DNA of 64,000 nt from Escherichia coli (GTDB lineage: Bacteria; Pseudomonadota; Gammaproteobacteria; Enterobacterales; Enterobacteriaceae): NCBI RefSeq assembly GCF_022846255.1, contig NZ_AP025682.1; one strand, given 5' to 3'. The position numbers and the translations under genes were made by a program. The notes beneath the pieces are model-generated. The model was not told the origin of the DNA and did no database searches. It was given only the letters and a program-made list of their open reading frames with translations. Shown here piece by piece: positions 30,627-64,000 of this stretch (its first letter is position 1; each line of letters starts with the position of its first letter).

Positions 30627-31637
30627 ATGAGTGCGTTAAATAAGAAAAGTTTTCTTACTTACCTGAAAGAGGGCGGTATTTACGTCGTTCTTTTAGTTTT
30701 GCTGGCGATTATTATTTTCCAGGACCCAACATTTTTAAGTCTGTTGAACTTAAGTAATATTCTCACCCAGTCATCGGTGCGTATTATTATCGCGCTTGGT
30801 GTGGCAGGGTTAATTGTCACCCAGGGGACTGACCTTTCCGCAGGTCGCCAGGTGGGGCTGGCGGCAGTAGTAGCAGCGACGTTATTGCAGTCCATGGATA
30901 ACGCTAACAAAGTGTTCCCGGAAATGGCGACGATGCCGATTGCGCTGGTTATTCTGATTGTCTGTGCCATTGGTGCGGTGATCGGTTTGATCAACGGGCT
31001 GATTATCGCCTATCTCAACGTGACGCCGTTCATTACCACGCTCGGCACGATGATTATCGTCTACGGCATTAACTCGCTCTATTACGACTTTGTCGGGGCG
31101 TCGCCAATTTCCGGTTTTGACAGTGGCTTCTCTACCTTTGCTCAAGGCTTTGTCGCGCTGGGGAGTTTCCGTCTCTCTTACATCACCTTCTATGCGTTGA
31201 TTGCGGTGGTGTTTGTCTGGGTGTTATGGAACAAAACCCGCTTCGGTAAGAACATTTTTGCCATTGGCGGTAACCCGGAAGCGGCGAAAGTATCTGGTGT
31301 CAACGTCGGCCTGAACCTGCTGATGATCTACGCGTTGTCTGGTGTGTTCTATGCCTTCGGCGGGATGTTAGAAGCCGGACGTATCGGCTCAGCCACCAAC
31401 AACCTCGGCTTTATGTATGAGCTGGATGCTATCGCGGCGTGCGTGGTAGGCGGCGTATCGTTCAGCGGCGGTGTGGGGACGGTAATTGGTGTGGTGACCG
31501 GGGTGATTATTTTTACCGTCATTAACTATGGCCTGACGTATATCGGCGTAAACCCGTACTGGCAGTACATCATCAAAGGGGCGATTATTATCTTTGCCGT
31601 GGCGCTGGATTCACTGAAGTACGCGCGTAAGAAATGA
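30627..31637 (+). CDS. mglC: Galactose/methyl-galactoside ABC transporter permease
   Basis: 336-aa polytopic membrane protein. Confidence 0.93.
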   Translation: MSALNKKSFLTYLKEGGIYVVLLVLLAIIIFQDPTFLSLLNLSNILTQSSVRIIIALGVAGLIVTQGTDLSAGRQVGLAAVVAATLLQSMDNANKVFPEMATMPIALVILIVCAIGAVIGLINGLIIAYLNVTPFITTLGTMIIVYGINSLYYDFVGASPISGFDSGFSTFAQGFVALGSFRLSYITFYALIAVVFVWVLWNKTRFGKNIFAIGGNPEAAKVSGVNVGLNLLMIYALSGVFYAFGGMLEAGRIGSATNNLGFMYELDAIAACVVGGVSFSGGVGTVIGVVTGVIIFTVINYGLTYIGVNPYWQYIIKGAIIIFAVALDSLKYARKK

Positions 31638-31695
31638 TGTAAATGTGGTCCGCATTCGGTCATAAACGCACATAACATCATGGTCTGTGTGGTTT

Positions 31696-31877
31696 TGTAG
31701 GCCGGATAAGGCGTTCACGCCGCATCCGGCGACAGGAGCCAAATGCCGGATGCAACGCTGGCGCGTTTTATCCGGCCTACAATGAGCTCAACATACTGAT
31801 TTGTATGGTTTTGTAGGCCGGATAAGGCGTTCAAGCCGCATCCGGCGACAGGAACTAAATGCCGGATGCGTCGCTGG
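31696..31877. repeat. BIME cluster: about four REP units in alternating orientation (two tandem ~115-bp units)
   Basis: Repeated TGTAGGCCGGATAAGGCGTTCA(C/A)GCCGCATCCGGCGACAGGA and inverted GCCGGATGC...CCGGCCTACA copies. Confidence 0.85.
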
Positions 31878-31879
31878 TT

Positions 31880-33115
31880 TTACAACGTTACCGGGTGTTC
31901 TTTCTCGCCTTTCTTAAACTTCACTTCCCCAAGATCAATACAACCTACCGGGCAGACATGACCACAAAGCAGACAACCCACGCATTTCTCGGTATTACAA
32001 TGCGGTGTGCGGGTTTTCTCGCTCCATTCCATCGCCTGGTGACCGCCGTCGTAACAGGAAATATAACAGCGTCCACAGCCAACACATTTATCAAGATTGA
32101 TATGGGGATAGACAATATAACTGCGGTCTAAATCTTCCGCCGGGACAATATTGTGATTCGCCAGACCCACCATCTCCTGCAACGAATCAAACCCTTGATC
32201 GGCGAGATAATGCGACAACCCGCTTGCCATATCTTCCACTATCCGATACCCGTACTGCATAATGCCGGTGGTCACCTGCAACGTTGCTGCGCCGAGCAAT
32301 AAAAACTCCGCCGCATCTTCCCAGGTTTCAATGCCGCCGATACCGCTGATCGGGAAATCGTGCAGTTCTGGATGGGTGCGCATTTGCTGAATAAAGCGTA
32401 GGGCGATCGGTTTTACCGCTTTACCGGAATATCCGGAAATACTCGATTTACCGTTAACGATCGGCATACCAATTTTCTGATTAAGATCGATATTGGTGAT
32501 GGATTTAACGGTGTTAATCGCCGCAATGCCATCTGCGCCGCCGCGCTTCGCCGCCAGCGCCACTTCGCACATATCACCAATATTCGGCGTCATCTTCGCC
32601 AGCATTGGCAGCGTGGAACCACGTTTTACTGCCCGACAATATTTTTCTACCAGCTCCGGGCTTTGCCCGACATCGCTACCCATCGCATGAGAAGTCATTT
32701 GCGGACAGGAGAAGTTACACTCGATCATATCCGCGCCAGCTTCTTGCACCAGACGCGCCAGCTCTTCCCATTGCTGCTCATTTTCGCCCATGATTGAAGC
32801 GATCAATACTTTGTCCGGATAATCTTCTTTCAGCCGACGCAGGGCGGCCAGATTCTCTTCCAACGGATGTTCAGCAATCTGCTCCATATTTTTGAAGCCG
32901 ATAAAACCGGTATCTTCTTTCACCAGATGATCAAAACGCGGCGAGACTTCGTTGGCGATAAAAAAACCGATCGTTTTAAACACCACGCCGCCCCAACCTG
33001 TGTCGTAGGCTTTGGCACACATCTCATAGCAGTTGCCTACCGGTGAAGAAGAAAGGCAGAACGGGTTAGGAAACTTCACGCCGCAAAAGGTAATCGAAAG
33101 ATCTTTCGTTAACAT
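31880..33115 (-). CDS. preA: NAD-dependent dihydropyrimidine dehydrogenase subunit PreA (DHOD-like TIM barrel with C-terminal 4Fe-4S ferredoxin)
   Basis: 411 aa from ATG 33115; C-terminal CxxCxxCxxxCP motifs; overlaps the preT stop. Confidence 0.9.
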
Positions 33116-34347
33116 GAGCAAGCTCCCTCTAAATAGTGATGAATCGCCTCGGCGGCTTCTTTCCCGGTTTTCACTGCATAGACCACGGTTTTGTCACCCT
33201 CAACAATATCGCCAGCAGCAAAGACTTGCGGGTCGCGGGTCTGGTAATTTTGCGTTTCGATGGTGTTACGCTGCGGCTCTAACTCCGCAAAGGCATCCAG
33301 TCTGGCATGCTGACCGATGGCGAGAATAATTTTATCTGCCGCCATCGTCAGTTCGCCCGGTAACCGTACATGCTTAAACGTGACTTTATTGCCTTCCACG
33401 GCTACTGGTGTAAATCCATCGATGATCGAAACGCCCAGCTCTCTGGCGCTGGTAAACTCTTTTTCGCTTGCCGGAAACTCATCTAACTCTTCACGCGCTA
33501 CGCAGGTTACCGCCTGACAGCCGAGAACTTTCAGCGTGCTGGCTACGTCCATCGCGACATCACCGCCGCCGATAATTAATGCACTTTGTGGAATGCTGAT
33601 ATCGCCTTGCGCCTGTCGTGCACGTTGCAGGAAGTCTACGGCAATCTCAACGTCGCTATGCTCAAACAGCGATAACCCGGAACCGCTCGATAACCCTACG
33701 GTGACCAGTACCGCGCGGTTTTCCGCTTTCAGCTGCTCCAGGGTGAGTGTTTTACCGATTTCGTTATTGCACTTAATGGTCACGCCCATTTTTTCTATAC
33801 GGGCGATTTCTGCATCCAGCACCGATTGCGGTAACCGGAATTGCGGAATGCCGTTACGCAACCAGCCACCGGGTTGTGCTTCTTTCTCATAGATCGTGAC
33901 GTCATAACCCTGGTTTGTCAGCGTCACACTGGCCTGCAATCCGGCAGGACCTGCGCCAATAATGGCGACTTTGCCGAGCGTTTTAGTACCGGGCAGATAA
34001 ATTTCCATCCCAGTTTGTTGTTCAAAATCAGTAACAAAACGCTGTAAGCGACCGATATCAATGGGAGCATCAACACCGGCACGTGTACAACCGCTTTGGC
34101 ATAATTTCTCCGTCGGGCACACTCTGGCACAAACGGCACCGAGGGCATTATTTTCGCGAATTGTCTCGGCAGCGCCTTTAAAATTACGAAAGTAGATTGA
34201 GCGAATAAATTTCCCCGGATCGGTCTGTGCCGGGCAAGCCTGACTACAGGGAGCGTCATGACATAATAAACAGCGAGAGGCTTCTTTAATCGCCAGTAAA
34301 GGCGTAAAAGCCGGAGTGAGTTCATCCAGATAATTTTGTTGCGGCAT
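33109..34347 (-). CDS. preT: NAD-dependent dihydropyrimidine dehydrogenase subunit PreT (GltD-like)
   Basis: 412-aa ORF with N-terminal Fe-S cysteines and an FAD/NAD Rossmann motif GAGPAG. Confidence 0.9.
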
Positions 34348-34540: not shown

Positions 34541-36536
<1,996 letters not shown>

Positions 36537-43355: not shown

Positions 43356-43528
43356 AAAGTTCTTTTGCGCTGCATTGCTGGCGTAAATGTCAGCAATGCA
43401 GCATTTCCTCACGATTCTTCTTTGACGATCGCACTTTTTGCTCGTTATGATGGCGTCGCTAGCCTCAGTAAATCCTTACTCCGGCGGTGCGCAACCCGTG
43501 CGCGTGAACCACTATCTGAATGCTCATC

Positions 43529-63745: not shown

Positions 63746-63861
63746 ATATTCATCCCTGAAATGTATTAATGAAATAAACGATATTTTACGCGCAATAAAT
63801 GTTTGCCGCATTAGTTGTTTGAGCGAAAAATATCTGGAAAGCAGATCACAGTAAATAAAAA

Positions 63862-63892
63862 AACCTGCTGGTGAGGCAGGTTCTTTTATTTA
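63862..63892. terminator. Bidirectional rho-independent terminator upstream of yehL
   Basis: AACCTGC-tggtgag-GCAGGTT flanked by an A-run (5') and CTTTTATTT (3'). Confidence 0.7.
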
Positions 63893-64000
63893 CTATTTTC
63901 AGGCCTAACACCACAGCCTGTGCAACATCGTGTTCCAACGAACGAATTATAACCACGGCTGGACCCCGTTGCAATTAAGATAATGAGATTTATAATCCAG

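Follow-up and report, generated by a model that had tools for sequence, protein, structure and literature searches.

Between the convergent genes mglC and preA of Escherichia coli lies a short extragenic stretch with tandem palindromic repeats, and it raises the question of which class of repeat this is and what such an array may do where two operons run into each other. The locus was analysed in a window of 64,000 nucleotides (RefSeq assembly GCF_022846255.1, contig NZ_AP025682.1). According to the ORF list and the translations, 242 nt separate the stop codon of mglC on the plus strand from that of preA on the minus strand, and every part of the array is located between the mglC stop at 31637 and the preA stop at 31880. 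An earlier note on this DNA had described a unit of about 115 bp that was duplicated between the two genes. A repeat search of the spacer gave one direct-repeat family, 31674-31761 and 31790-31877, with a length of 88 nt, 89% identity and a start-to-start distance of 116 nt. The duplication is real and has a period of 116 nt, but the second copy is partial: the repeated part comprises 88 of the 116 nt, which corresponds to 1.76 copies. The string quoted in the earlier note indeed occurs twice in tandem, at 31693-31756 and 31809-31872. Tandem Repeats Finder returned no rows for the array because, with 88 of the 116 nt repeated, it amounts to less than two full copies.

The repeated elements are imperfect palindromes of 30-40 nt with GTAGG/CCTAC heads. 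As the earlier note had suggested, they were compared to the REP consensus GCCGGATGCGGCGTGAACGCCTTATCCGGCCTAC (PMC12306157), which was matched at 31697-31730 without mismatches and at 31813-31846 with one mismatch; no match was expected in 100 shuffles. The tandem REP arrangement is real and not a product of chance. Parsing of the array into segments (Table 1) gave three complete palindromes, Y, Z2 and Y, followed by an 18-nt half Z2, where four REP units had been counted before. The first Y has its conventional GCCGGATGC...CCTAC orientation on the minus strand, which puts its GTAG head on the plus strand. The array starts close to one gene and ends even closer to the other, with 59 nt from the mglC stop to the start of the first REP and 2 nt from the end of the half Z2 to the preA stop codon. 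On the left side the repeat reaches past the REPs because the left flank, 31674-31696, resembles the right part of the head-to-head linker, of which it is a partial and diverged copy (AACATCATGGTCTGTGTGGTTTT vs AACATACTGATTTGTATGGTTTT, about 70% identity).

Table 1. Positions in the window of the segments of the mglC-preA spacer, the hairpins that they can form and the adjacent features.
Feature	Position	Strand	Basis or property
mglC stop codon, TGA	31635..31637	+	ORF 30627-31637, translation ending ...LDSLKYARKK and stop; annotated mglC in E. coli genomes
Left flank, 23 nt	31674..31696		Direct-repeat family; first 23 nt of the repeat
REP/PU type Y, copy 1	31697..31731	-	0 mismatches to REP consensus; Y consensus from PMC2817692
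Hairpin of Y copy 1	31697..31731		-21.1 / -21.6 kcal/mol on the two strands
S-type tail-to-tail linker 1, ACAGGAGCCAAA, 12 nt	31732..31743		Segment parsing; BIME-2 definition from PMC3333891
REP/PU type Z2, complete, 37 nt	31744..31780	+	Length and loop (CGCGCCAGCG) as in the published Z2 consensus GTAGGcatGATAAGaCGcgcCAgCGtCGCATCaGGCA (PMC2817692)
Hairpin of Z2	31744..31780		-20.5 / -21.2 kcal/mol on the two strands
Head-to-head linker, 32 nt, AATGAGCTCAACATACTGATTTGTATGGTTTT	31781..31812		Segment parsing
REP/PU type Y, copy 2	31813..31847	-	1 mismatch to REP consensus
Hairpin of Y copy 2	31813..31847		-20.1 / -19.7 kcal/mol on the two strands
Tail-to-tail hairpin	31838..31869		Y2 tail GCATCCGGC (31838-31846) and half-Z2 GCCGGATGC (31861-31869), 14-nt loop
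S-type tail-to-tail linker 2, ACAGGAACTAAA, 12 nt	31848..31859		Segment parsing
In vitro Rho-binding peak, sense to preA	31848..31916	-	MG1655 2236464-2236532, table of preprint 10.64898/2026.03.23.713779
Half Z2 (tail), 18 nt, TGCCGGATGCGTCGCTGG, cut at the loop	31860..31877	+	Reverse complement CCAGCGACGCATCCGGCA is the 3' half of the Z2 consensus
TT between half Z2 and preA stop	31878-31879		
preA stop codon, TAA on the minus strand	31880..31882	-	ORF 31880-33121, translation ending ...EKEHPVTL and stop; annotated preA

Two open frames start in the S linkers. The first linker reads as AGGAG, 4 nt and ATG and opens an 18-codon frame through Z2 (MPDATLARFIRPTMSSTY followed by a stop; 31734-31799, plus strand), and the second, with AGGAAC, opens a 90-codon ORF on the plus strand (31859-32131) that is antisense to the end of preA. 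Both are probably chance ORFs of the kind that REPs often create.

REP pairs of this type are divided into two classes. BIME-1 elements consist of Z1 and Y joined by a long L linker that often has an IHF site, and they occur in single copy (PMC3333891; PMC2817692). BIME-2 elements consist of Z2 and Y joined by a short S linker and occur as tandem copies with flanking s, l or r motifs; their copy number differs between strains and they form the strong gyrase-binding class (PMC3333891; PMC2817692; PMC1187871). In the mglC-preA spacer Y and Z2 alternate as Y(-), Z2(+), Y(-) and half Z2(+), both tail-to-tail linkers have a length of 12 nt, and the copies follow each other in tandem with a recurrent head-to-head motif between them. 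A 69-nt query centred on the head-to-head linker was found at a median of 8 and a maximum of 26 places per E. coli genome, and related linkers occur for example at cyuA-yhaL and rnr-rlmB. The possibility that the linker is locus-specific, as in a purely local duplication, was rejected on the basis of these related linkers at several other loci per genome. All modules of the array recur at other places in the genome. Judged by its sequence the array is a BIME-2-type REP cluster, built in order from a partial linker, Y, S, Z2, the 32-nt linker, Y, S and half Z2, and it occupies the greater part of the 242-nt spacer.

The class is known and the element itself is already catalogued, in agreement with the remark in the earlier note that this is a known repeat class. 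In the supplementary table of preprint 10.64898/2026.03.23.713779 the element REP156 of strain MG1655 is listed at 2236535-2236684 with the description 'Convergent preA/mglC', and transfer of these coordinates gives 31696-31845 of the window. The transfer is collinear, with 12,001 nt aligning in a single piece and spacers of equal length. REP156 is the same element at the same locus with a 242-nt spacer and an identical architecture; the listed coordinates, however, take in three complete palindromes only, with the half Z2 (31860-31877) remaining outside. The spacer itself reaches an identity of 97.5% at best, which prompted a check for a source other than E. coli; such a source was rejected, as the best-matching complete genome shares 99.4% identity with the window over 12 kb. 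The identity to MG1655 over 12 kb is 97.3%. The comparison with K-12 MC1061 gave about 8 substitutions over 321 aligned columns. A literature search on this locus found only the table in the preprint. Elsewhere in the window a solitary Y-type REP that deviates from the consensus at 3 positions is present at 35611-35644 on the minus strand, which by MG1655 coordinate transfer is between cdd and sanA.

Two other REP systems offer a comparison. The REP325/naRNA4 array between yjdM and yjdN likewise consists of Y, a short linker and Z2 in head-to-tail repeats. It has six units with a period of 100, a 17-nt head-to-head spacer and an 11-nt tail-to-tail linker and is located between tandem genes, whereas the mglC-preA array has 1.76 units with a period of 116 and a different, 32-nt head-to-head linker and is located between convergent genes. 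Furthermore, Z2 carries GCCGGATG here and GCCTGATG in REP325. With the non-autonomous mobile system of TnpA-REP (RAYT, yafM) the array has in common the GTAG-headed imperfect palindromes, the variable linkers and a copy number that varies among strains; in the case of the mglC-preA array, however, it is solely the variety of alleles that suggests mobility.

The earlier note had proposed to compare the copy number of the unit in other strains, and in this comparison the E. coli spacer had a length of 242, 126 or 70 nt. Of the 5,426 complete E. coli genomes, 2,875 contained 80% or more of a 401-nt query that spans the spacer. The head-to-head junction was found with at least 90% identity in about 2,824 records, followed by a gap down to the 82% identity of paralogous loci. 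With shares estimated from summary counts and from 40 rows taken at even intervals, we find the two-unit spacer of 242 nt in about 52% of the complete E. coli genomes (K-12, Nissle 1917, most O157), a 126-nt spacer from which exactly one 116-nt unit is gone in about 1% (O157:H7 strain 7409), and a 70-nt spacer without any complete REP in about 47% (O104:H4, ST38 and others). The three alleles divide the species roughly in half. Such a length polymorphism is unsurprising, as BIME-2 loci have been described as strain-variable.

The 70-nt allele retains just a Z2 tail, a Y tail and the half Z2 together with the S linker. Its alignment corresponds to a spacer type of 151 nt, composed of Z2, linker, Y, S and half Z2, in which about 81 nt around the centre of the long Z2-linker-Y palindrome are missing, apparently by deletion. 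In the sequences of O104:H4 C227-11 and M25631H the shortened spacer has a new hairpin of 9 bp with a 3-nt loop (GCCGGATGC-GCT-GCATCCGGC).

Further spacer lengths were found in E. albertii (197 nt), E. whittamii (151 nt), Escherichia sp. E1V33 (130 nt) and Escherichia sp. MOD1-EC7003 (112 nt), as well as in two genomes labelled E. coli, strain E69 (93% identical to the window; 152 nt) and SCPM-O-B-8794 (92.5% identical to the window; 280 nt). The 280-nt array of the latter comprises five palindromes in the order Z2-Y-Z2-Y-Z2. Its last Z2 is complete, and the GTAG/CTAC head of this Z2 overlaps the preA stop, with CTAC supplying the TAG. Because a full Z2 occupies this position in SCPM-O-B-8794, the half Z2 found elsewhere is probably the deleted remnant of a complete unit. 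We also considered that the last preA codons are derived from the missing Z2 half, for which there are two hints: the stop codon provided by CTAC in SCPM-O-B-8794, and an Rfam alignment of the second unit that runs into preA up to 31909. This derivation was rejected in view of the PreA protein of Kluyvera cryocrescens, which has a related end, ...GEKEHAVAL and stop; no REP heads were detected within 450 nt downstream of the mglC stop in that species.

Outside Escherichia, preA usually is not the next gene after mglC, and K. cryocrescens was the sole case among the genera examined. In K. cryocrescens NBRC 102467 the mglC frame is without its usual stop and continues for about 70 extra codons before the convergent preA-like gene, which reflects a real extension or else a sequencing error. 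In a metagenome-assembled genome of Leclercia adecarboxylata, mglC is followed by a gene other than preA, and the 450 nt behind mglC contain ten GTAGG/CCTAC heads; this large REP-like cluster apparently arose independently at the mglC end.

To describe the RNA structures that the array can form, the individual REPs and the whole spacer were folded. The complete REPs each formed a hairpin with an energy between -19.7 and -21.6 kcal/mol on both strands and z about -4 to -4.7, and relative to shuffled sequences the whole spacer had z-scores of -6.3 (plus strand) and -7.6 (minus strand). Eight Y-S-Z2 units, taken from REP325 and from the mglC-preA spacers of several Escherichia, were also aligned. 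In this small sample 97.9% of the cells pair, and two Z2 pairs have been changed on both sides (G-C to U-A and A-U to G-C). The half Z2 cannot fold on its own; its partner is the tail of the second Y. Folding of 31834-31879 gave for this tail-to-tail hairpin -21.0 kcal/mol on the minus strand and -21.3 kcal/mol on the plus strand. On the preA (minus-strand) transcript the extended stem starts from 31875, which leaves 4 unpaired nt after the stop, and thus begins 5 nt past the stop codon. Both arms of the tail-to-tail hairpin are kept in 11 of the 12 spacer sequences (window included), the exception being E. albertii. The minimum-free-energy structure of the entire spacer does not contain this hairpin.

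REPs reportedly stabilize mRNA in cases such as malE-malF, and work by Espeli et al. from 2001 is said to describe attenuation of transcription by BIMEs. The mglC-preA array resembles these examples in having GC-rich REP hairpins in a 3' UTR without a U-tract, but here two converging transcripts would be served, and the role is assigned by analogy. Both mglBAC and preTA would transcribe into the array and thereby acquire hairpins of about -20 kcal/mol in their 3' UTRs. These hairpins could block 3'-to-5' exonucleases and could also attenuate read-through, partly via Rho, such that neither operon would be transcribed far into the other. We consider a two-way 3'-end hairpin block, which would stabilize the mRNA and attenuate read-through for mglBAC as well as preTA, the most likely role of the array. 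This role is favored because the spacer has neither a promoter-like site nor a proper intrinsic terminator. At the level of DNA the Y-S-Z2 units belong to the class of gyrase-binding sites, at which the positive supercoils of convergent transcription could be removed. The tandem structure and its variants would have arisen by recombination or slippage between units and by deletion of the long Z2-linker-Y palindrome, possibly with a contribution of the REP-associated transposase TnpA-REP.

Published observations bear on several of these steps. As cited in PMC2817692 and PMC3333891, BIME-2 elements bind gyrase and REPs function as topological insulators. For a BIME-2 element such as this one it is reasonable to expect that it binds gyrase and insulates the convergent units. 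According to preprint 10.64898/2026.03.23.713779, REP325 is a partly Rho-dependent attenuator or terminator that also stabilizes the upstream mRNA, about 60% of the E. coli REPs are located between convergent genes, and in convergent pairs with a REP both genes are expressed at a higher level than in pairs without one. The same study reports that terminal REPs have no general effect on mRNA half-life, with a large variance from locus to locus, and that Rho dependence was undetectable with REP325 pieces of 2 to 4 hairpins. The Rho-binding peak near the preA end (Table 1) was obtained in vitro and is 3 nt from REP156, beside the element and not inside it (preprint 10.64898/2026.03.23.713779). 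Complete REPs appear to be dispensable at this locus because about 47% of the complete E. coli genomes have none here. As a whole, the explanation of the array as a BIME-2 cluster at convergent 3' ends with the roles outlined above is one in which we place high confidence.

The alternative that survives best is that the array is an essentially neutral or selfish repeat that has no selected function and owes its spread and its changes in length to recombination and the REP-associated transposase. It is in agreement with the BIME-2 classification and differs from the hairpin-block explanation on function only. Nearly all examined Escherichia lineages differ in their layout, with spacers of 70 to 280 nt, and nearly half of E. 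coli has lost all complete REPs at this position. Variation in copy number at BIME loci is known, and in vitro BIMEs are cleaved and recombined by TnpA-REP (PMC3333891); the lack of a general half-life effect noted above points in the same direction. Arguments against a neutral repeat are that REP tails able to form a strong hairpin are kept by the preA stop in 11 of 12 spacers and that REPs between convergent genes correlate with higher expression (preprint 10.64898/2026.03.23.713779). The compensatory changes that keep the Z2 pairing also argue against it, although recognition by the transposase could equally explain them. We regard a complete absence of selected function as possible but rather unlikely, while the long array may be largely neutral.

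The conserved tail-to-tail hairpin suggests a different alternative, in which the function resides in this hairpin and not in the complete REPs: with its stem beginning 5 nt past the preA stop codon, it would stall terminating ribosomes and lower PreA synthesis, an effect that has been described for REPs at a distance of fewer than 16 nt from a stop codon. Its predicted stability of -21 kcal/mol, with pairing of 31838-31869 and a stem extending to 31875, fits such a role, as does its retention in 11 of 12 spacers, the 70-nt remnant included. The order of the sequence implies that on the emerging preA transcript it would form before the Y2 hairpin. According to PMC12306157, citing Liang et al. 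2015, REPs affect translation only within 15 nt of the stop. The structure is, however, not a canonical REP hairpin, since it pairs two REP tails across a 14-nt loop; it does not appear when the full spacer is folded to minimum free energy, and E. albertii is without the adjacent Y tail. The coordinates of REP156, moreover, start 34 nt from the stop, which would place that element beyond the 15-nt distance. Ribosome stalling by this hairpin as the main function thus appears doubtful to us. Equally doubtful is the broader proposal that the constant part of the spacer is the Y-tail/half-Z2 hairpin, acting as a stop-proximal regulator of PreA synthesis or preTA mRNA decay, and that the 242-, 126- and 70-nt alleles set a different 3'-end behavior of mglBAC and preTA.

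A search against Rfam raised the further possibility that the array encodes a small RNA of the naRNA4 type, which would condense the nucleoid together with HU. The naRNA4 model RF02564 matched 31700..31777 on the plus strand over its full length (model 1-77 of 77) with 85.8 bits, which is above the gathering score of 59.5, and a 2015 report proposed that two-hairpin Y/Z2 RNAs of REP325 bind HU and bridge cruciforms (PMC4550694). The model represents one Y-S-Z2 unit of REP325 (PMC4550694) and fits any such unit; since this is what it describes, the match restates the classification. The second unit, 31816-31909, scored 37.9 bits and remained under the threshold. A promoter scan of the spacer gave 0 sites. 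In the scan for intrinsic terminators no REP hairpin was followed by a T-run, and there was one weak pattern inside Z2 against 0.8 expected. Both an independent small-RNA gene and an intrinsic terminator were set aside on the basis of these two scans. Moreover, deletion or overexpression of REP325 or naRNA4 leaves the nucleoid size unchanged and REP-REP contacts are not enriched (preprint 10.64898/2026.03.23.713779); this preprint and the 2015 naRNA4 report (PMC4550694) have a senior author in common. A role in nucleoid condensation with HU is very improbable for this array.

Two other Rfam matches in the window lie outside the spacer. The type I toxin-antitoxin RNA antitoxin OrzO-P (RF02083) was matched in full length at 63857-63932 on the minus strand with 99.9 bits (threshold 60); this locus is presumably absent from K-12. 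The Peptidase-S11 RNA motif (RF03039), a cis-regulatory candidate, was matched at 43444-43524 on the plus strand with 72.8 bits (threshold 34.8).

That the array is an IHF-binding BIME-1 (RIB/RIP element), as implied by the statement in the earlier note that such BIMEs bind IHF, can practically be dismissed: the sequence between the REPs of BIME-1 is generally stated to bind IHF and the array shares with BIME-1 the inverted REP pairs in a 3' intergenic region, but it has Z2 instead of Z1, 12-nt tail-to-tail linkers instead of the long L linker to which the IHF site belongs, and tandem copies; the search for an IHF consensus between the REPs that the earlier note had proposed gave no exact match to WATCAANNNNTTR anywhere in the 242-nt spacer and none between REP tails, and the sole match with 1 mismatch (31789-31801, minus strand) sits in the head-to-head linker and is within chance, with about 0.28 expected.

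The assignment to the BIME-2 subclass means that the expected protein partner at this locus is gyrase and not IHF, and that the Rfam naRNA4 match is to be read as a generic BIME-2 match. According to preprint 10.64898/2026.03.23.713779 on REP325, the role of REPs between convergent operons is still context-dependent. The spacers of 242, 126 and 70 nt form a natural allelic series in E. coli, joined by further forms in other Escherichia, which could be used directly to test the effect of REP arrays between convergent operons.
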